64,000 bases of DNA from a bacterium. Its GTDB lineage: Bacteria; Oederibacteriota; Muellerivitia; Muellerivitales; Muellerivitaceae. The notes under the pieces were generated by a model. The model did not search any database, was not told where the DNA came from, and saw only the letters and a program-made list of their open reading frames with translations. Positions 29,520 to 41,140 of the stretch are shown here, one piece after another (position 1 is the stretch's first letter; each line of letters begins with the position of its first letter). The stretch is taken from positions 7,231 to 71,230 of the forward strand of contig DASZRK010000055.1 in NCBI GenBank assembly GCA_035549195.1, given 5' to 3'. The position numbers and the translations under genes were made by a program.

Positions 29520-32500
29520 TTACTGGCGCAGTACGGTCACGCCGCCGGCGTCGGAGATGCTGGTGACGGCCGGGTCGTACATGGACTCCACCTTGACCGG
29601 GGGCAGTTGGAACTGGCCGGCGGTCACGGCCCGCAAGGTGTAGTAATAACGGTAGGTCTGCCCGGTGCCCAAGGGCAGGAAGAAGATCACCCGGTCATCC
29701 CGCAGGTCCAGGAAGTCGACGGGGGTCTTGCCGTTCTCCTGGGAGACCCAGGGAAGCACCTCCCGGGATTCCAGCCGTGGGTTCTCCACCTCGAAGCCGG
29801 CCGGGAGCAGGTCCACGACCGCCAGGTTCTTGTAGTCGTCCTTGGCGCCCGAGACCGTGACCTCGGCCACGATCATCTGGCCCTGGGCGACCTTGGAAAG
29901 GTCCAGGTTCCCGCCGTCCCGGTCCTTGTAGACGCGGCGCACCGAGATGTCATTGTCGTAGGAGGTCACCGGCCCGTTCCCCTGGACCACGCCGTCCGCT
30001 TCCCAGAAATAGAAGGCGGTGCCTTCGCCCTGGGTCTCGATCTCCACCTTCTGGCCGCCCATATCCTCGCCCCGCACCTCGACGGTCGATTTCGAGTCAA
30101 AGGAGCGGACCTTCTTGCCGCCGATGCGGATCTCGCCGGTGAAAGTGCCGGTGGAAAGCTTGGTGAAGGTCTTGCCCAACGCCATCAGGGCGAAGGAGGT
30201 CTCCTGGGTGTTGTACCAGCGGCCCATGCGCGAATGGGTGTTGAGGAACTTGAGGAGGGACGGGATGGCCGGGTGTTCCCCATCCAGTTCCACGTAGGCG
30301 TCCAGGAGCATGGCGGCCTCCCGGACGTCCGAGTTGAAGTAGCCGCCCGTCTCCCGTTTGCCGTCGTTGTTGGGTCTGGCGTTGGCCGGCAGGATGGACC
30401 GGGCCGTCTTGGGGTCCCCGGCGTGGATATAGGCCAGCGCCAACTGGGCGCGGGAGTAGAGGGGGAGCTGGTTGAGTTTCTGCTCCCGGAAATAGTTCAT
30501 GGTGCCCATGTCCGGATCCCCGAGGAGGGAAAGGACATAGCAGGCATAGACGCGGGTGTTCTCCCCCCAACCGTCGTAATAGGAGTAGTAATCCCGCTGC
30601 TCGTCGCCCCGGGCCACGGACCGGAGGTTGTGGGTGATGCCGTCGATGACCCGGTCGGAGACGTCATAGCCCTTGAGCTTGGCCTCGGCCAGGAAATGGG
30701 AGGCGTAAACGCTGCACCAATAGTTGCTGTAGGAGCCTCCCGGCCAGTAGCTGAAGCCGCCCCTGGAATCCATCATGGATTCGATCTTGCGGATACCCTC
30801 CCCGACGAAGTAATCCGCCGAGTTGTTCTTGAACAGGTCCGGGGCCGCCACCTTGGCCACTTCGTTGAAATAAAGGAGGGGGAAAGCGGCGGAGGTGGTC
30901 TGTTCGATGCAGCCATAGGGGTAATGCAGGAGATAGGCGAGGCCCCCCATGTAACGCATGGTCGGCAGGCCCGAAAGGACCAGGGAATAGCGGTCGGTGC
31001 CCTGGACCAGCTTGTCCGGGAGGTCGAAGGAAACGGCCTTGCCGGGCGGGACCGAGCCCGAACCGCCGAAGTTCTCGATCGGGCGCGCGGGCCGCACGGG
31101 GATGGATGTGACCTGGCTCACCGACGCTCCCAAACCGTCGGCGGTCAAGGTGATGTCGGTCGGTTCCACCCGTTCCAGGACATGGGCCTGGAAGAGGACT
31201 TGGCCCATGGAAGAGGGGCCGATCTCCACCTCGGCGCTGGCGGGACCATCGACCTGCACGGGGCCGGAGGAGGACAGGTGGACGGTGACCTTGCCCTTTT
31301 GCTTGGTGCCGTTGAAGACGCCCACGGGGATCTCGAAGGAGTCGCCCATGGCCAGGAAGCGCGGCAGGTTGGGGGTGAGCACGATGGGGGAGCGCACGAT
31401 GAGGGGCGATTCGGCTGCCCCGAAGCGGCTTCCCTTGAAGGCGACGGCCATGAGGCGCAGCTCGCCGTCGAACTGGGGCACCTGGAAGGTGACCGTGGCG
31501 TGGCCCAGCATGTTCGTCTTCACCAGACCCGACCAAAGGGCCACGGGCTTGACCCGTTTCACCTGCGGACGGGCCAGGTTCCTTTCGCGCCTGCCGTCGG
31601 AGCCGCCGGTAGGGCCCTTGCCCTTGGCGACCTCGGGAAGGACATAGGAATAAAGGTCCATAGGCACGGTCGCCAGACGGAGGGGACCGTAAAAGAAGTC
31701 ATAGGGGTCGGGGGACCGGAAATCGGTCAACTGCAGGATGCCCGAATCCACCGCGGCCAGGATGACCTGGGCCCCGGGTTTGGCGTTGACCTCGACGGTC
31801 AGGGAGGTGAGCGGCCGGATCTCGGCGGGGGCCTTCAAGCTCACCGGGATACGGTCGGCCGGCTTCGAGACCATCATGCGCACCAGGCCGAAGGCGCGGG
31901 CCGGGGCGTGGGTCTCCATCGAATCGGTCGAACGGATGAGGGTGGCGGTCACGTAGACGTTGGGTTTGAACCGCTCGGGGACGGGGATCTGGATGACCCC
32001 GGTGTTCTCCGTCAGGGTGGCGGTGGTGTACCAATAGACGTCGTCCCGCTCGACGGTGACGAGGATCTTGCCGGGGAAGGGCGAGCGGACGCGTAGTTGG
32101 GCGATATCGCCGGGCGAGAACTCGCTCTTGTCCAGGCTCAGGTCCAACTTATCGGGCTGGGCCATGGAGACCGAGGAGTAGCCCCAGCCCCAGGCGGAGA
32201 ACTCGTCGGAGGTGATGACCTGTCCGTCGGCGGAGGAGACCTCCAGCTTGAACTGGCCGTATTCGTTCACGTCCATGCCCAGGGGTTCGATCCCACCGTC
32301 CAGGTCCAGGGGGACCTGCTTGACGATCTGGAACTGGTATTCGGAGACGAAGCGGTAATGGCCGTCGTTGTCCTTGCGGTAGAGCGATTCCCAGACCTTG
32401 CGGTAAAGGGTGGCCTTGGCGGGCCCGGCCTTGAAGGGCTTGCCCTGGGGATCCAGGGAAACGATGTCGTAGCGGACCTTCCGGCCCTCGGAATCGCCGT

Positions 32501-35057
32501 ATTCGTCGCTCTTCATACGGTTGCGGAGCCCGATGTAATAGGGATAGGGGTGGAAATCCACGGTCTTGACGCCGGAGATGGCGCGGCTTCCCTCGTCCAG
32601 GACGGTCCCGACCACCTGGGCGGAGAGCAGGCCCCGGGGTTTGGCATCCGGGAGCTTGAGGGTGACGGCGAAGCCGCCCTGGGCGTCCAGGGTCCCTTGG
32701 CCGGCCTCGGTCTCGAATTCCTTGAAGTCGTTGTTGGGATCGCCGAACTTGAAGTCCGAATAGCCCTTGGGACGGAAGGCCTTGTCCGTGAAGACGGTCC
32801 GCACGGAGACCTTCTGGTTGGCGGCCGGGGCGCCGAAGAGGAAGTCGCCCTGGACATGGGCTTGCAGGCTGTCACCCAGTTGGTAGGAGTCCTTGTCGGT
32901 CTTGACCGCGACGCGGATGCGGTCCGGGATGAAGTCCTCGACGCTGAAGGAGACGGCGCCCACCTCGTTCTTTTCCCCGATGGTCAGGCTGGCCCGGTAT
33001 TTCCCCGTCTTGGCGTAGGTGGGGATGGGGATGTCCAGGTCGAAGCCCCCGTCGGACTGGGACTTGGCCATGGTCTCCAGGAAGACCTTGGATTGGGGGT
33101 CGTAGAGGGTCAGTTTCGCCGGCATGGAAGGGGGCGTGTCCAACTGGGCGGTGCGCAGGATGCCCGCCAGGTGGGCCTTGTCGCCGGGCCGATAGACGCC
33201 CCGGTCGGTGAAGAGATAGGCCTGGAGGTCCTTGGACTGGTCGCGGCCGGAGATGTCGTAGTCGGCCAGGGAGATCTCGGACGAATCGAAAAGAAGGAAG
33301 GATTCGTCGTCCCCCAGCTTGGCGGTGATGAGCAGGGGGGTCATCTTCTCCTTGTCGAAGGCCGAAAGCCCCTCGAAGACCGCCTTCCCGTCCTTGTCGG
33401 TGGTGGCATGGGCCAGGGGCTGGTTGTTGGTGCTGATGAGGGTCAATTCGACCCCGGCGAGGGAATGGAGGGTGGTCAGGGAATTGGCGAAGACCACATA
33501 GGAATCGGCGGTCTTGCGGGCGATGAGCCCGATGTCGGTGACCAGCACCCACTTGGAGTCGGTCAGTTTTCGGTTCGTGTCGTAGTCGTAATCGTCGTCC
33601 CCGCCCTCCTCGTCGTCGCCTTCCCCGGCGTCGGCCTGGTGGGGACGGCCCCCGGTCCTCAGGAAGACCCGGAAGAGGCCTTTGCGCTTGCCTTGGGCCA
33701 ATTCGCGCATGCTGTAGGCGGTGGTCACCATGGTGTTGCGGTCGCGGCTGAGCGTCACATCCTCGGTCTTGACGTGCTGGCCCAGGTTCTGGAATTGCCC
33801 CTCATAGTAGTAATAGCGGTAATAGCCGGAGGCCCCCAGGATCCGCCCGCCGAATTCCCTCAATAGATAGACCAGGTTGTTCATGAAGACCTTGTCCACC
33901 ATCACCTGGGCCTTGGAGACGTTCACCGAATTGATGGCCAGGTTCATCTCCCCGCGGCGGGGGAGGTAGAAGCCGTCGTCGGCGAAGGTGAGCATGGGTT
34001 CCAGGTCGGTGATCTCGATGTCCTTCTTGACCTCGGCGGGAAGCACGGACCCGTCGATCCCCTGCAGGCCGTCCCGGACGGTCACGTGGTAGGTCTGCCC
34101 GCCCTGGAAACGGCCCCTGAGGAAGACGGTCTGATAGGAAGCGGTGGCCGAGAACTCGACGTCGGGGCTGACCACGATGTAGTCCTTGAGGCGGGAGGTG
34201 TCGACCGGCGAGGAGAAATTCAGTCGGATGGCGATGTTCCCCGGGTTGGTATCCACCTCGGCGCTCTTGAGCTCCAGGTCCTTGGCCATTTGCGGCTCCA
34301 GGTCCTGGGTGACGGCGTGCCCCAGCCCTCCGCCGCAGCTGACACAGGCCAGGTCGCCCGTCAAGGCCACCTTCAAGTGGGCCTTGCCCTTGCGCGGTTC
34401 GATGGGTTGGGTGATGAGGGAATGGAGGCTCCCGGTGGCCAGGGTCTCGAAGGAAAAGGGGACGGTCTTTCCGTTCTCGTCCAGCACGATCACGTTCTGT
34501 ACCAGGTCCTTCTGGGCGACGGGATAGTTGAATTCCAGGCCGATCCGCACCCGGCTTTTTTCGCCCTTGGACAGGGTCCTTTCATAAAAACCGCTGACGC
34601 TCTTGACCTCGAAATCGGGGGTCTGGAAATGGAAGGTGCTGCTGCCGTCGATCTTCTTCCCGGAAACGGCGTCCTCCAGGACCTGGACGGTGTAGCGGGT
34701 GGCGGGGGCCAGGGGAACGGCGGCGGTATAGGAGAGGGTCCGGGCGTCCTTCCAAATATAAAATCCCGGGATGGGCGGATCGATGTCCATCAAATGACCC
34801 TGAAAGCGCCGGTTCAGGGCGGATTCTTCGGCGACCTTACGGTTGAACTGGATGGTGAGTTCCTGTTGGTTGACGGCCACTTGTCCGGTCGGGCTGAATT
34901 GGGAGATCCGGATCCCGGGACGGTAATGGAACAGGGTGCCCAGCGCGAGAAGGAGAAGTCCCCCAAGAAAGAGCTTCTTGCGGGTGCCCGGGTCCTTCCA
35001 GCGGATGGATCTTAGGGAGGATAGGGAACGGCCGAATAACGAAAGGACCTTTTTCAT
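29520..35057 (-). CDS. Bacterial alpha-2-macroglobulin
   Basis: About 1845 aa. Motifs TDRGVYRPG, EDFIPDR, AAVDSGILQLT, thioester PYGCIEQ, W.NTQE, DLLPAGFE.EN, RDDR, YDP. GGAG SD before ATG 35057. Confidence 0.95.
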   Translation of the reverse strand: MKKVLSLFGRSLSSLRSIRWKDPGTRKKLFLGGLLLLALGTLFHYRPGIRISQFSPTGQVAVNQQELTIQFNRKVAEESALNRRFQGHLMDIDPPIPGFYIWKDARTLSYTAAVPLAPATRYTVQVLEDAVSGKKIDGSSTFHFQTPDFEVKSVSGFYERTLSKGEKSRVRIGLEFNYPVAQKDLVQNVIVLDENGKTVPFSFETLATGSLHSLITQPIEPRKGKAHLKVALTGDLACVSCGGGLGHAVTQDLEPQMAKDLELKSAEVDTNPGNIAIRLNFSSPVDTSRLKDYIVVSPDVEFSATASYQTVFLRGRFQGGQTYHVTVRDGLQGIDGSVLPAEVKKDIEITDLEPMLTFADDGFYLPRRGEMNLAINSVNVSKAQVMVDKVFMNNLVYLLREFGGRILGASGYYRYYYYEGQFQNLGQHVKTEDVTLSRDRNTMVTTAYSMRELAQGKRKGLFRVFLRTGGRPHQADAGEGDDEEGGDDDYDYDTNRKLTDSKWVLVTDIGLIARKTADSYVVFANSLTTLHSLAGVELTLISTNNQPLAHATTDKDGKAVFEGLSAFDKEKMTPLLITAKLGDDESFLLFDSSEISLADYDISGRDQSKDLQAYLFTDRGVYRPGDKAHLAGILRTAQLDTPPSMPAKLTLYDPQSKVFLETMAKSQSDGGFDLDIPIPTYAKTGKYRASLTIGEKNEVGAVSFSVEDFIPDRIRVAVKTDKDSYQLGDSLQAHVQGDFLFGAPAANQKVSVRTVFTDKAFRPKGYSDFKFGDPNNDFKEFETEAGQGTLDAQGGFAVTLKLPDAKPRGLLSAQVVGTVLDEGSRAISGVKTVDFHPYPYYIGLRNRMKSDEYGDSEGRKVRYDIVSLDPQGKPFKAGPAKATLYRKVWESLYRKDNDGHYRFVSEYQFQIVKQVPLDLDGGIEPLGMDVNEYGQFKLEVSSADGQVITSDEFSAWGWGYSSVSMAQPDKLDLSLDKSEFSPGDIAQLRVRSPFPGKILVTVERDDVYWYTTATLTENTGVIQIPVPERFKPNVYVTATLIRSTDSMETHAPARAFGLVRMMVSKPADRIPVSLKAPAEIRPLTSLTVEVNAKPGAQVILAAVDSGILQLTDFRSPDPYDFFYGPLRLATVPMDLYSYVLPEVAKGKGPTGGSDGRRERNLARPQVKRVKPVALWSGLVKTNMLGHATVTFQVPQFDGELRLMAVAFKGSRFGAAESPLIVRSPIVLTPNLPRFLAMGDSFEIPVGVFNGTKQKGKVTVHLSSSGPVQVDGPASAEVEIGPSSMGQVLFQAHVLERVEPTDITLTADGLGASVSQVTSIPVRPARPIENFGGSGSVPPGKAVSFDLPDKLVQGTDRYSLVLSGLPTMRYMGGLAYLLHYPYGCIEQTTSAAFPLLYFNEVAKVAAPDLFKNNSADYFVGEGIRKIESMMDSRGGFSYWPGGSYSNYWCSVYASHFLAEAKLKGYDVSDRVIDGITHNLRSVARGDEQRDYYSYYDGWGENTRVYACYVLSLLGDPDMGTMNYFREQKLNQLPLYSRAQLALAYIHAGDPKTARSILPANARPNNDGKRETGGYFNSDVREAAMLLDAYVELDGEHPAIPSLLKFLNTHSRMGRWYNTQETSFALMALGKTFTKLSTGTFTGEIRIGGKKVRSFDSKSTVEVRGEDMGGQKVEIETQGEGTAFYFWEADGVVQGNGPVTSYDNDISVRRVYKDRDGGNLDLSKVAQGQMIVAEVTVSGAKDDYKNLAVVDLLPAGFEVENPRLESREVLPWVSQENGKTPVDFLDLRDDRVIFFLPLGTGQTYRYYYTLRAVTAGQFQLPPVKVESMYDPAVTSISDAGGVTVLRQ

Positions 35058-35176
35058 ATATAGAAGGCTCCTTGGCTGGATGGTCGATAGGCTGGAGGAA
35101 GGGCCTATGATAAACCTGGGCCGAAGAGGCCAGTGTAAATAAACCGGCAAAAATACATCCTTATATAAGGGGAACC

Positions 35177-35734
35177 ATGGCTTCCGCATTGACGCACGCT
35201 TTCGTTGGGTCCGTGATGGGGAAGATCATCCGTGGAAAGGACCGGATGCCACGGCGATTTTGGATCGGCCTGGCTTTAACGGCCGCTCTACCCGACCTGG
35301 ATGTGGTCTCATTTCATCTGGGGATCCCCTATGAAAGCCCCTGGGGACACCGGGGATTCACCCATTCCCTGGTCTTCGCCGCTTTCCTGGGATGGCTGAC
35401 CCTCGAACTGTTACGGCTGGGGGAAAAGCGTTTTTCGAGGAACTGGTGGATGCTGTGGGCCTGTTTTTTCCTGGCGACCGCCTCCCATGGGCTCCTGGAC
35501 GCCATGACCAATGGCGGTATGGGCATCGCCTTCTTTTGGCCCTTTCGTAACGCCCGCTATTTCCTGCCCTGGCGGCCCATCCTTGTCTCGCCGGTCGCGT
35601 TCCAAGCTTTCTTCCACCATCGCGCCTTCGCGATCCTGAAAAGCGAGTTCCTGTGGGTCTGGATCCCGGTGGTCCTGCTTTGGGTTCTCTCCGCCATTCT
35701 TCGCCGGGTCTTGGGGAGTGAAAGGCCGAAATGA
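35177..35734 (+). CDS. Membrane metal-dependent hydrolase (YdjM/YbcI family)
   Basis: Motifs LTH, LPDLD, GHRGFTHSL, SHGLLDA. Confidence 0.88.
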   Translation: MASALTHAFVGSVMGKIIRGKDRMPRRFWIGLALTAALPDLDVVSFHLGIPYESPWGHRGFTHSLVFAAFLGWLTLELLRLGEKRFSRNWWMLWACFFLATASHGLLDAMTNGGMGIAFFWPFRNARYFLPWRPILVSPVAFQAFFHHRAFAILKSEFLWVWIPVVLLWVLSAILRRVLGSERPK

Positions 35735-36955: not shown

Positions 36956-37185
36956 GGCCGGCTTAGATCCGGCGGTTCTTCTGGCGTTTGATCGGTGCCA
37001 AGGCGAGCCCCACCATCCAGAAGCCCGACATCCCCAAAAAAGCCAGGCCGTCCAGGACCAGCGTCCCCAGCATGTTCTTGATCTTGCGGCCCATGACGAA
37101 CCTCCTTCACTTTTTCAGACGGGCCAACATCCCCATTGGTTCAAGGTGCATAACCGATGCCAAGTGGCCCGGTCGGGCCGGGAAG

Positions 37186-37209
37186 AAAAGTATACGGCCG
37201 TATACTTTT
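37186..37209. promoter_or_regulatory. Perfect 24-bp palindrome, candidate operator of recA
   Basis: AAAAGTATACGGCCGTATACTTTT is its own reverse complement and ends 3 bp before the -35 box. Confidence 0.65.
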
Positions 37210-37212
37210 TTC

Positions 37213-37241
37213 TTGACGGGGCATTGGGCGGCTTTTAGGAT
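37213..37241 (+). promoter_or_regulatory. Sigma70-type recA promoter
   Basis: TTGACG (37213-37218), 17-bp spacer, TAGGAT (37236-37241). Confidence 0.75.
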
Positions 37242-37368: not shown

Positions 37369-38520
37369 ATGGCGAGCGAGAAACAAAAGGCGTTGGATAA
37401 CGCGATCCTGCAGATCGAGAAGGACCACGGCAAGGGCGCGATCATGAAACTGGGGGAGGCCAAGGTCCAGGACGTGAAGTCCATCTCCACGGGGGCCATC
37501 TCGGTCGATATCGCCACCGGCATCGGGGGGGTTCCCCGGGGCCGCATCGTTGAGATCTATGGACCGGAATCCTCCGGTAAGACCACCCTCACCCTCCATA
37601 TCGTCGCCGAGTGTCAAAAAGCGGGCGGGACCGCCGTGTTTATTGACGCGGAACATGCCATGGACCCGGTCTATGCCAAGAAACTGGGGGTGAACGTGGA
37701 TGAACTGCTCATCTCCCAGCCTGATTCGGCCGAAGAAGCCCTCCAGATCGCCGATACCCTCATCCGTTCCGGGGCCATCGACGTCATCGTCATCGACTCC
37801 GTGGCCGCCTTGGCCCCCAGGGCCGAGTTGGAAGGCGAGATGGGCGATGCCCACGTGGGGCTCCAGGCCCGCTTGATGAGCCAGGCCCTGCGTAAATTGA
37901 CGGCTTTGCTCTCGAAATCCAACACCAGCGCCCTTTTCATCAACCAGATCCGCGAGAAGATCGGGGTCATGTTCGGGAATCCGGAGACCACCCCAGGGGG
38001 ACGGGCCTTGAAGTTCTACTCCTCCATGCGGCTGGATGTGCGCCGGGTCGAGGCCATCAAGAGCGGGGACCAGAACATCGGGAACAAGGTGAAGGTCAAG
38101 GTGGTCAAGAACAAGACGGCCCAGCCTTTCCGGGAGGGTTTCGTCGACATCATCTTCGGGGAAGGCATCTCCAAGGAAGGTTCGCTCATCGATGTGGGCG
38201 TGGAAATGGGCATCGTGGACAAGAGCGGGACTTGGTTGAGCTTCGGGGAGACCAAGATCGGCCAGGGCCGGGACGCCGGCAAGGCTTTCTTGAAGGAACA
38301 CACCGATGTCGCCGCCCAGATCGAGAAGAGGATCAAGGAAAAGGTCGGGCTGATCCCGGCGCCGGCCCAGGCACCCGCCAAGCCTTCGGCGACGGGCTCC
38401 GCCCCTGCGGCGGCTTCGGCGGACAAGCCGGTGGCCGCGCCCACGCCCTTGAAGCCCGAACTTAAGAAGGATGCCGGACTGGTCCTGACCGAGAAGGCCA
38501 AAGTCGCCTTGCGCAAGTGA
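37369..38520 (+). CDS. recA: Recombinase RecA with long Ala/Pro/Lys-rich C-terminal tail
   Basis: AAGGAG SD; motifs [52 protein letters not shown]. Confidence 0.98.
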
Positions 38521-38529
38521 GGTGGATCG

Positions 38530-38658
38530 ATGGAAACCTATCGTCCGACCTATCGGAACGGCCAGTGGGTCGTGGTTGACTCGAACGGCGACGTGGTCGC
38601 CCTGTGCGAGAGCCAATCCGATTCGTTGGTCCAGGCGAACAGCCTGAACGGCTACTGA
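38530..38658 (+). CDS. 42-aa small protein downstream of recA (not in the ORF track)
   Basis: GAGGTG SD overlapping the recA stop; ATG 38530 to TGA 38658; METYRPTYRNGQWVVVDSNGDVVALCESQSDSLVQANSLNGY; followed by a terminator. Confidence 0.72.
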   Translation: METYRPTYRNGQWVVVDSNGDVVALCESQSDSLVQANSLNGY

Positions 38659-38673
38659 CGAGTCGTTCTTTTG

Positions 38674-38699
38674 AAAAGGGGGCCTTTGGCCCCTTTTTT
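38674..38699 (+). terminator. Intrinsic terminator closing the recA-sORF unit
   Basis: GGGGCC-ttt-GGCCCC followed by TTTTTT. Confidence 0.8.
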
Positions 38700-38767
38700 C
38701 ATTTCATGGACCTGTCAAACACTGCCGGTTGCCTTAAAATGGCCCCCATCTCCAAAAGGGAAGGCCC

Positions 38768-41140
38768 ATGACCCAGAAACCCATGAACAAGTTCCTGAAG
38801 ATCATCCTGTGGATCATCGGCGGTTTTGTCGGCCTGGTGGTCCTGCTCCTGGCCGCTGCCGCCATCATCATCCCGATCAAATATCCGCCCGAGAAGTTGA
38901 AGGCCATGGCCACGGAGAAGCTCACCGAGACCCTTCATCACCAGGTCGCCGTCAAGGACGTTCGATTCAACATCCTCAGCGGCTTCAAAATCCAAGGCTT
39001 GAAAGTGGCGAACCGGGCGGGTTGGGACCCGACCCCGATCGTGGACGCCAAGGAGATCTCCATCTCCTATCAGTTGTTCCCCCTGCTTTGGGGCCAAGTG
39101 AAACTGGACGAGGTGGTGTTGGACCGCCCCGAGATCTTCATCGAGCGCCGGGGGATGGATTCCTTCAATTTTTCCGACATGACGGCCTCCACTTCTTCGG
39201 CCGTTCCGGCGGCCGCCCCCGCGGCCCAAGCGTCCGTCGCGGCCAAAAAGCCGGCCGCTAAGCCCAAGGCCAAGCCGAAACCGAAGAGCAAAAAGAAGGC
39301 GAAGCCCCACGCCGGATTGCCTTCCGAGACCCGCCCGGATGCTTTCGGGTCCTTGTTCGTCGCTTCCGCCTACGCCGATGACGGGACGGCTTCGAAGCCC
39401 GCGGACAAGGCTTCCAAGACCACCCTCCTGCTCACGGTGGGGAACGCCAAGATCGTGCACGGGAAGATGACCTACCTGGACCGCTCCGTGAACCCGCCTC
39501 AAAAGTACCTTTTGAGCGATCTGAACCTCCATATCGAGAACATCTCGATGGTCGGTGGAAAGTCCAATTTCACCATGAGCACCCCGGTGGAAGCCAATAA
39601 CCAGAAGTATCAGTTCTCGCTCAAGGGGACCTACCGGTTCTTGATGGCCAGTTCGATGATCAAGGACATGGACATCGAAGGGATCTTGAACGACTCCCAC
39701 AGCTTCCAGGTGAAGGGCGACCTGTCCTATGGGGATGGTATCGCCCCCAAATTGGATGGGGACGCCAGTCTCGACAGCCTGAAATTGGTGGATCTCATCC
39801 CCCGGAACCTGGCCAAGATGCCCCAGGGCCTGGTCTTAAAGGGACCCGCCCGGGTCGATTTCCACTTGGAAGGGAACACCAAGGCCGGTTTGGAATTGGA
39901 CGGGTCCGCCGATGGCTCGAGCCTGGCGATCCAGTTCAAGGACTATTTCATCAAGACCGACAAGACCACCTGCAAGGTGGAGTTCAAGAGCTTGAACCGC
40001 ATGGCCCAGGGGATCTATGACATCCCTTCGTTCAAGATCCATTACCAGGATTGGGATGTGAACGGTTCCTTCCATTACCAAAGCAATGGGCTTTATTCCG
40101 GCTCGGTCCATTCCAAGTCCTTGCCTTTCCAGGGGCTGCCGGGGATGTTCCCGAAATTGAAGAACACCACCGTGAACGGTTCGGGGGCCATGGACATCGA
40201 TTTTTCCCAGGTCCTGGGAAAGCCCGAGTCCCTGAAGGTGAACGGGCTGGTGTCCTTGAAGGGGGTCGGGATCATCCTGCCGAAACAAGAACCCTATTTG
40301 GAGGACATCACGGGGCCGATCTACCTGAACGGGCAGGTCCTCCGGGTGCCCAAGGCGACCTTCAAATCCTTTGACGGGACGGGAGCCGCGGGGGTCACTT
40401 GGAACTACGTCAACGATGGTTATACGTACGGATTCGTCCTGAAGGATGTGAGCGCCCAGAAAGCCATCGATGCCAGCATCGACGCCTATGTGACCACCAA
40501 GGACTTCACCGACTATAAGGACAAGCTCCTGGGAAACCTCAACCTGTCCTATGCCGGTTCGGGAAGGGGATTCGGCGGCGACCAGATGATCGCCTCGGCC
40601 CTGGGGAACGGGAGCTATACGCTCGACCACGCCAAGGTCAAGGACCTTGCCCTGGTCAAGGCCATCAACAAGTACTTCAAGGACTCGAGCAACGAGATCG
40701 CCTTCGATCAGATCAAGGGTGTCCTGGTGATGAAGAACAAGGTCTTCACTTACACGGCGGATACGAACGGGAAGGTGGGCGCGGTCCGGGAAAGGGGCGG
40801 CATCAACGTGGCGGAGATGGTCTATGCCCCCGACATGACGGTCCAGGCCGATGTGAAGAAGGACTTCCTGAATTCGGACGCGGTCCTGGCCGGACTCCCG
40901 GGGGAAGTGAGGGGGCTGGTCAAGAACGTGGATTGGTTCGCGGACGGGAACGGGAACATCCCCATCGATTTCAAGTTCACCGGGCCGGTCAAACAGAACA
41001 ATTACGCCTATGACTGGGACCGGCTGAAGAAGAACGTCGGGGACCATGCGGCCCAGGAGGCCAAAAAGGCCGTTGGCGACGCGGCGAAGCCCGTGCTCAA
41101 CGATATCGGCAATAAATTAAAAGGATTGTTCGGCAAATAA
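38768..41140 (+). CDS. AsmA family protein
   Basis: N-terminal TM anchor followed by AsmA_N-like pattern (KLTETLHHQV.V.DV, I.I..SYQLFPLLWGQV.LDEVVLDRPEI.IER); beta-rich body; C-terminal PI.F..TGP... Confidence 0.8.
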   Translation: MTQKPMNKFLKIILWIIGGFVGLVVLLLAAAAIIIPIKYPPEKLKAMATEKLTETLHHQVAVKDVRFNILSGFKIQGLKVANRAGWDPTPIVDAKEISISYQLFPLLWGQVKLDEVVLDRPEIFIERRGMDSFNFSDMTASTSSAVPAAAPAAQASVAAKKPAAKPKAKPKPKSKKKAKPHAGLPSETRPDAFGSLFVASAYADDGTASKPADKASKTTLLLTVGNAKIVHGKMTYLDRSVNPPQKYLLSDLNLHIENISMVGGKSNFTMSTPVEANNQKYQFSLKGTYRFLMASSMIKDMDIEGILNDSHSFQVKGDLSYGDGIAPKLDGDASLDSLKLVDLIPRNLAKMPQGLVLKGPARVDFHLEGNTKAGLELDGSADGSSLAIQFKDYFIKTDKTTCKVEFKSLNRMAQGIYDIPSFKIHYQDWDVNGSFHYQSNGLYSGSVHSKSLPFQGLPGMFPKLKNTTVNGSGAMDIDFSQVLGKPESLKVNGLVSLKGVGIILPKQEPYLEDITGPIYLNGQVLRVPKATFKSFDGTGAAGVTWNYVNDGYTYGFVLKDVSAQKAIDASIDAYVTTKDFTDYKDKLLGNLNLSYAGSGRGFGGDQMIASALGNGSYTLDHAKVKDLALVKAINKYFKDSSNEIAFDQIKGVLVMKNKVFTYTADTNGKVGAVRERGGINVAEMVYAPDMTVQADVKKDFLNSDAVLAGLPGEVRGLVKNVDWFADGNGNIPIDFKFTGPVKQNNYAYDWDRLKKNVGDHAAQEAKKAVGDAAKPVLNDIGNKLKGLFGK

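Follow-up and report, generated by a model that had tools for sequence, protein, structure and literature searches.

Among the closest described counterparts of the gene reported here are small modulators of RecA. RecX proteins are about 150–260 aa long and all-helical, and DinI-type SOS proteins are acidic, have about 80 aa and bind the RecA filament. In mycobacteria, recX overlaps recA, lies directly downstream of it and is co-transcribed with it (PMC3062782), which bears out the claim of a sequence-only reading of this DNA that the short ORF (sORF) behind recA sits in the slot used by recX elsewhere. In the window, by which we mean the whole 64-kb stretch of DNA that was analysed, from an uncultured soil bacterium, the slot that recX holds in other bacteria is occupied by a new, clade-restricted small gene. 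Its surroundings comprise the following features, the transcription signals being predicted.

37189-37206, forward strand: perfect palindrome AGTATAC-GGCC-GTATACT, 6 nt upstream of the recA −35 box
37213-37241, forward strand: sigma-70-like promoter of the recA–sORF unit, TTGACG-17-TAGGAT, found by pattern scan, with both hexamers kept in relatives
37369-38520, forward strand: recA, 383 aa (Pfam RecA, E=1e-136; RecA_C, 2.5e-22)
38519-38524, forward strand: Shine–Dalgarno sequence GAGGTG of the sORF, overlapping the recA stop, with 5 nt between its end and the ATG
38530-38658, forward strand: sORF with ATG start, 42 aa, sequence METYRPTYRNGQWVVVDSNGDVVALCESQSDSLVQANSLNGY
38673-38699, forward strand: intrinsic terminator GAAAAGGGGGCC-TTT-GGCCCCTTTTTT, closing the recA–sORF unit
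38712-38740, forward strand: promoter-like site of the asmA-like gene, found by pattern scan; it lies outside the recA–sORF unit and marks its boundary
38768-41140: asmA-like gene, with AsmA/DUF748 Pfam matches

The spacer between the recA stop codon (TGA, 38518-38520) and the sORF ATG is 9 nt, and the Shine–Dalgarno sequence extends over that stop, as the sequence-only reading had stated. In the relatives that bear the sORF, AAGGGGG replaces GAGGTG at the same place; across the window and these relatives, the distance from the Shine–Dalgarno sequence to the ATG is 5–6 nt, and the sORF starts 9–10 nt after the recA stop, each time with a Shine–Dalgarno sequence of its own. The terminator consists of a 12-bp stem with a G/C core of 6 bp followed by U6, and a folding energy of −27.6 kcal/mol is predicted for the 71-nt terminator stretch (z = −3.5 relative to shuffles). 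It is the first strong hairpin with a U-run after recA and lies 3′ of the sORF, which, with the 9-nt gap, confirms that termination is predicted only after the sORF. This hairpin is absent from the list produced by a simple pattern scan for terminators, probably owing to an A/U extension of the stem that absorbs the T-run. The proposal that recA and the sORF form one unit is also supported, since relatives without the sORF have a predicted terminator directly behind recA. Only the description of the sORF as uncalled was wrong: automatic gene callers list its 42-residue product in public gene-call tables (P0001), unnamed and with no Pfam match. The product of the window variant has a mass of 4.7 kDa and a pI of 4.1, and would yield the tryptic peptide NGQWVVVDSNGDVVALCESQSDSLVQANSLNGY.

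The gene order at the locus is cold-shock (CSD), PIG-L deacetylase, recA, sORF, asmA-like, MFS, Metallophos, MazG and Mrr-type nuclease. Upstream of the cold-shock gene lies a minus-strand ORF of 1889 aa (29520-35189). On the other side, the asmA-like gene is preceded by a block, TAAAATGGCC(C/T)CCATCTC(A/C)(A/G)A..AAGGGAA(A/G)GCC(C/T)ATG (38700-38767 in the window), that is near-invariant in L084, L088, L089 and L092, the last of which is a lineage without the sORF. This block is more conserved at the DNA level than the sORF and suggests a conserved −10 element plus the leader or ribosome-binding region of asmA.

Only the window has its sORF in the frame of recA, the junction TGA GGT GGA TCG ATG (38518-38532) reading stop-Gly-Gly-Ser-Met, and UGA read-through there would yield a RecA-GGS-peptide fusion. 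Such a fusion was rejected as a conserved mechanism, given the 10-nt spacer and the TAA stop in L084, L087, L088 and L089.

Contigs of relatives were found with the AsmA-like and RecA proteins as queries. Four relatives, L084, L087, L088 and L089, bear the sORF, which begins 10 nt past the recA stop and precedes the terminator (in L084 and L087/L088 the contigs contain recA in part); in L084, L088 and L089, the terminator hairpin recurs at the same place with sequence changes. Together with the window, they provide four sORF variants from independent soil metagenomes (that of the window, that of L084, that of L087/L088, which is P0030, and that of L089), and the locus was found in four soil-metagenome runs of one study, with 98–100% of the words present. 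The sORF is missing from at least six related lineages that share the CSD/PIG-L/recA/asmA gene order. The loci without it are listed here with the identity of their RecA to that of the window.

L092/L093: no sORF; RecA identity 87%
L090/L091: no sORF; RecA identity 87%
L094/L095: no sORF; RecA identity 90% over the core
L096: no sORF; RecA identity 90% over the core
L085: no sORF; RecA identity 83%
P0005 contig: no sORF; RecA identity 80%; a 134-nt gap without a called gene (gene calls only)
L005, candidate division FCPU426 MAG: no sORF; RecA identity 68%; an asmA-like ORF begins at the end of recA and leaves no room

Of the 80 genome loci listed, the candidate division FCPU426 MAG (68%) has the nearest RecA with a named source, and a tblastn search with the sORF peptide gave no match in the 80 RecA loci listed from GTDB genomes, a set that does not include close relatives. 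In the recA–asmA gaps of L085, L090, L092, L094/L095 and L096, an intrinsic terminator stands 20–50 nt past the recA stop, and none of the frames of these gaps encodes a peptide related to the sORF. In the alignment, a clean block of approximately 130 nt separating the recA stop from the terminator is either present or absent. In a neighbour-joining tree of RecA, the lineages bearing the sORF are nested among lineages without it, with L092 as sister; a single gain is hence the more parsimonious history, compared with several losses, and we consider it fairly probable, as judged from these sequences, that the sORF is a recent acquisition and not the remnant of many losses. As to the origin of the 130-nt block, it has no paralogue in the window and no mobile-element signature. 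Its restriction to one shallow clade means that the sORF is no general substitute for recX, and since most relatives lack it, it is dispensable for RecA function.

Dozens of ORFs as long as the sORF are listed in this DNA of 60% G+C, so its length alone is not significant, and it could be a chance ORF or, given that residues 9–27 look like one WG beta-repeat unit, the leftover of a larger gene (e.g. a WG-repeat fragment) that is untranslated or unselected. Its composition and its pattern of variation speak against this. A codon model was trained on ten long window genes; by this model the sORF frame scores +0.41 bits per codon and the other five frames −0.38 to −1.17; none of the off-frame 42-codon windows taken from real genes reaches the score of the sORF, whose GC3 is 0.83 vs 0.82 in the training genes. 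The host-like codon usage noted earlier thus holds, with a positive score in a single frame. The sORFs of the window, L084, L087, L088 and L089 all have 42 codons, with the same start, stop and position and without a single indel, although the copies of the relatives diverge from that of the window by 30–32% in nucleotides, and the three other peptide variants are 62–64% identical to that of the window. No indel is found in 126 nt of the sORF, in contrast to the flanking non-coding DNA, which contains indels.

A comparison of relatives including dN/dS, the check named in the sequence-only reading, was run and found the 42-codon ORF conserved in the clade with a dN/dS of 0.11–0.14, at a dS of about 2, which is saturated; the encoded protein is thus under purifying selection. 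For the same genome pairs, the neighbouring genes have values of 0.13 (AsmA), 0.09 (MFS) and 0.08–0.09 (RecA). Differences pile up at third codon positions, the counts at the first, second and third positions being 13/6/20 (window vs L084), 2/3/15 (L087 vs L089), and 12/9/20 and 3/5/17 in two further pairs. When the same substitutions were placed at random, equally few amino-acid changes arose at P = 0.004 to <5e-5, and a stop codon was introduced in 42–89% of placements depending on the pair (probability of no stop, 0.11–0.59), whereas the ORF is intact in four of the four real variants; these selection statistics come from four variants, three of them mutually close, and thus from few independent comparisons. 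The last seven residues, ANSLNGY, are invariant and their codons differ synonymously. Given this conservation, which includes the start, the stop, the length and the Shine–Dalgarno sequence, the sORF is more than a chance ORF. The confident fold prediction described below and the lack of a paralogue in the window also count against a relic, and we regard a chance ORF or relic as very improbable.

The 130-nt block might instead act as a structured RNA, either an element of the 3′-UTR or an sRNA derived from the 3′ end of recA, the ORF being incidental. Bacterial sRNAs derived from 3′-UTRs are common, and a 161-nt stretch of the window folds at −68.7 kcal/mol (z = −3.1 relative to shuffles). Nevertheless, covariation gives no support to the consensus fold of the four sequences (covariation term +0.56, with a compensatory change in 1 of 51 pairs), in which the terminator alone is conserved. 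The substitutions maintain codon periodicity and amino acids, the 126 nt are free of indels while those of the flanks are not, and Rfam gave no match in the entire window. We thus give this RNA reading a slightly smaller probability still than that of a chance ORF. A long mRNA hairpin is predicted within the sORF of the window (38560-38630); it is found there only and is not kept in three relatives. Overall, the evidence makes it very likely that the sORF is a genuine coding gene under selection, which shares a transcript with recA as far as its position and signals indicate. The RNA runs that have words in common with the region show zero depth over the sORF and cover the conserved recA core of other organisms, and the sORF may also be transcribed from a promoter inside recA.

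The sORF product is predicted with high confidence to be a three-stranded sheet packed on a C-terminal helix. AlphaFold2, run on a two-sequence alignment, gave a mean pLDDT of 95.6 and a pTM of 0.72, values that for a 42-mer on a near-empty alignment are not proof of folding; the control, an overlapping +1-frame ORF of 41 aa, obtained a pLDDT of 59.5 and a pTM of 0.29. The model places strands at residues 5–9, 12–16 and 22–26 and a helix at residues 29–39 (beta-beta-beta-alpha), as had been guessed from the sequence pattern. A metal site was considered and rejected: Cys8/His9 is confined to L084-type variants, Tyr8/Arg9 occupying these positions in the window, and the sole invariant residue of this kind is Cys26.

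The other proposal of the sequence-only reading, a likeness to DUF2188 or DUF1508 mini-domains, failed. For DUF1508 (PF07411), none of the four variants gave a Pfam match at E<=10, and hhalign against E. coli YegP, which had been confirmed beforehand as DUF1508 (4.7e-45), returned a probability of 0.1% over 2 aligned columns. Of the 50 Foldseek PDB matches listed, none is significant and none bears a YegP/DUF1508 description. Membership of DUF2188 (PF09954) was rejected likewise, there being no Pfam-A match for the window peptide at E<=1 or for the three other variants at E<=10.

Searches for homologues returned little beyond the clade itself. Searched exhaustively with phmmer, a set of 1.84 billion cluster representatives yielded two full-length matches, the sORF product itself and P0030, and hence no full-length homologue outside the clade among these proteins. 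A word-indexed protein search matched the peptide to itself only. In the JGI metagenomes, patterns of the N-terminal peptide gave 308 pattern matches with 0 relatives among them, and a degenerate pattern of the RecA tail gave 0 matches. In other runs, the contigs with recA words in common were low-depth identical fragments or contained unrelated recA core only, and no sORF paralogue was found within the window. Pfam gave no significant match for the four variants (best DUF5678, E=0.13), NCBIfam none for the sORF peptide and PHROGs none of significance (best phrog_23751, E=0.07); the best values were E=0.48 in a PDB sequence profile search and E=5 in tblastn against phage genomes. Foldseek against the PDB reached E=0.9 at best, with generic beta-meander-plus-helix pieces (integrase cores, chemokines).

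The remaining phmmer matches are long proteins with 4–11 matches each over residues ~7–31, at 8–10 bits per unit. All of these matches outside the clade are multi-repeat proteins; four of the six that were scanned in Pfam contain WG_beta_rep (PF14903), the other two have nothing above the Pfam curated cut-offs, and further phmmer matches carry other hairpin repeats. Residues 9–27 of the sORF product (RNGQWVVVDSNGDVVALCE) align with the repeat core NGKWG.ID..G..v.PCe, and its strand 2, turn and strand 3 resemble a WG-type hairpin. An ad hoc HMM of the WG unit scored the four peptides at 12.5–14.8 bits, above all 10,000 shuffles, a result biased by the fact that the HMM was built from proteins selected for similarity to the query; the high WG scores of whole proteins are sums over 5–11 repeats, with 8–10 bits per unit. 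The curated WG_beta_rep model gave no match at E<=10. WG_beta_rep proteins are tandem arrays of units of ~35 aa, whereas the sORF product, at 42 aa, has one hairpin unit followed by a helix that is without a WG counterpart, and it has W-V where the WG repeat has W-G. Membership of the WG_beta_rep family was thus rejected, given the unmatched curated model and a single unit without an array.

The best fold likenesses were obtained with Foldseek against predicted viral structures (TM 0.76–0.80 and rmsd 1.1–1.4 Å over ~38 residues, with E of 0.1 or worse). They include the small phage proteins K4I3E2 (Salmonella phage SSE121) and I6X2S4 (Vibrio phage phi-pp2) in BFVD, with query-normalised TM of 0.76–0.78 over 38 residues. 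Phage proteins of this type superpose on the sORF model with an rmsd of 1.2–1.4 Å, but their identity to it is 18–32% over 38 columns, E is >=0.1 and they are uncharacterised. As far as the predicted models go, the mini-fold recurs elsewhere and is uninformative on function.

The promoter of recA offers another line of evidence. The palindrome upstream of it is the sole match in the 64-kb window, and a block of the form AAAAAGTATAC-N4-GTATACTTTTTTCTTGAC-N17-TAGGAT lies upstream of recA in six lineages (window, L089, L090, L092, L094 and L096), with few base changes in L094 and L096. In the relatives, the palindrome has these positions.

L089: 75-90
L090: 1402-1417
L092: 1332-1347
L094: ~1108
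L096: ~1108

This palindrome looks like a candidate repressor operator, for which a LexA-type repressor is the obvious candidate; we know of no LexA box that the GTATAC palindrome matches. Divergently from recA, a hydrophobic ORF of 43 aa (36963-37094, reverse strand) starts ~95 nt from the palindrome and has no Pfam match. Homologues of 42–53 aa are found at the corresponding position of L090, L092 and L096 (M.RKIKN..G..LD.LAF...). This ORF is conserved more widely than the sORF, and it could encode a small membrane protein under the same candidate operator.

RecA itself ends in a Pro/Ala-rich extension of ~55 residues (residues ~329–383, encoded at 38353-38517) that is probably disordered and has a conserved basic end. 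The tail has a pI of 10, and its last 18 aa carry a charge of about +3.8; in E. coli, the RecA tail is acidic, i.e. of opposite charge. The ending ...KVAL[KR]K is common to most relatives without the sORF (L092, L090 and L085, with variants in L094 and L096).

From these observations a working model can be drawn. The sORF would be transcribed from the recA promoter with its conserved palindromic operator and, because of this, its product would be synthesised along with RecA, probably in response to DNA damage, perhaps with translational coupling to recA. The product would be cytoplasmic. The sORF peptides are acidic (pI 4.1–4.95, net charge −2.4 to −4.4 across variants), which may provide charge complementarity to the basic RecA tail, and their C-terminal helix and tail have invariant polar residues that hint at a binding surface. 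Most likely, the product would bind a partner through this invariant helix and the ANSLNGY tail, and the likeliest partner would be RecA, via its basic C-terminal tail or the filament, which would make the sORF product an analogue, without homology, of DinI, RecX and similar small RecA modulators. The proposed role in RecA function or DNA damage relies on operon position, the palindromic operator, the acidity of the peptide and its invariant C-terminus, and we consider it possible, though doubtful, that the target is RecA or the DNA-damage response. A more specific version, in which a newly born or acquired autonomous fold of 42 residues, unrelated to RecX and DinI, modulates RecA or the SOS response by docking via ANSLNGY, appears less likely again.

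In another reading, the sORF would encode the precursor of a ribosomally made, modified peptide (RiPP), with the invariant C-terminal NGY as its modification site; the length of 42 aa and the strictly conserved tail ending in Gly-Tyr recall some RiPP precursors. However, none of the neighbouring genes (CSD, PIG-L, recA, asmA-like, MFS, Metallophos, MazG and Mrr) encodes a maturation enzyme, and the whole chain is predicted to be compact rather than divided into leader and core. A RiPP precursor is, in our estimation, the least probable of the alternatives, and it is unlikely, as are a non-functional ORF and an RNA element.

A stronger competitor is a selected small protein that merely rides on the recA transcript, profiting from a strong inducible promoter while its target lies outside recombination (stress, phage-related or metabolic). 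The probable recent gain in a single clade agrees with this, and at least six related lineages without the sORF share the RecA tail and the candidate operator. The peptide is also unlike RecX, DinI or any RecA-binding family, and its best fold likenesses, none of them significant, are the small phage proteins mentioned above (TM 0.76–0.80, E of about 0.1). On the other hand, by general operon logic, genes placed between a gene and its terminator, with a Shine–Dalgarno sequence on the stop codon before them, usually have a functional connection to this gene; in addition, the neighbourhood is without mobile-element or phage genes and the codon usage of the sORF is fully host-like. We regard such a rider as a doubtful possibility, about as likely as an accessory role with RecA. 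Taken as a whole and weighted to the parts that were shown, our best explanation remains a clade-restricted coding gene in a putative two-gene operon with recA, its product being a possible RecA partner, an explanation towards which we lean slightly.

If the peptide does act on RecA, it would represent a new class of RecA modulators of very small size, and if its reading as a RecA/SOS modulator is true, a new regulator would have joined a core repair operon within a shallow clade. With 42 residues, the peptide is accessible to chemical synthesis and can be assayed in vitro against recombinant cognate RecA, with no need for culture. Whatever its function, the sORF is a clean example of a taxonomically restricted small gene, in which both the insertion point, between stop codon and terminator, and the sister lineages free of the sORF are visible, and it is useful for studying the birth and fixation of small proteins. 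It also indicates that the 3′ region of recA, usually taken as non-coding, can contain a selected gene. The reach of these results is that of a handful of soil-metagenome contigs from one lineage.

Among the known systems, the DUF1508 (YegP) and DUF2188 domains, with roughly 50–60 aa, are like the sORF product in small size only. RecX (PF02631) is closer in arrangement: both are small accessory products encoded on the same strand as recA, in the slot right after it and with apparent co-transcription, which for the sORF is predicted from its signals. The sORF product differs from RecX in having 42 aa and a mainly beta structure, and in being restricted to one shallow clade instead of the broad range of RecX; membership of the RecX family was rejected, as there is no Pfam or NCBIfam match to a 42-aa peptide with a predicted beta-beta-beta-alpha fold. 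In comparison with DinI, the sORF product shows no homology, has half the size and lies within the putative recA operon, not at an SOS locus of its own. Yet it shares with DinI a small, acidic and, according to the model, soluble design of beta-sheet plus helix and, like DinI-type SOS proteins, it is presumably made with RecA from a promoter bearing an operator-like palindrome.
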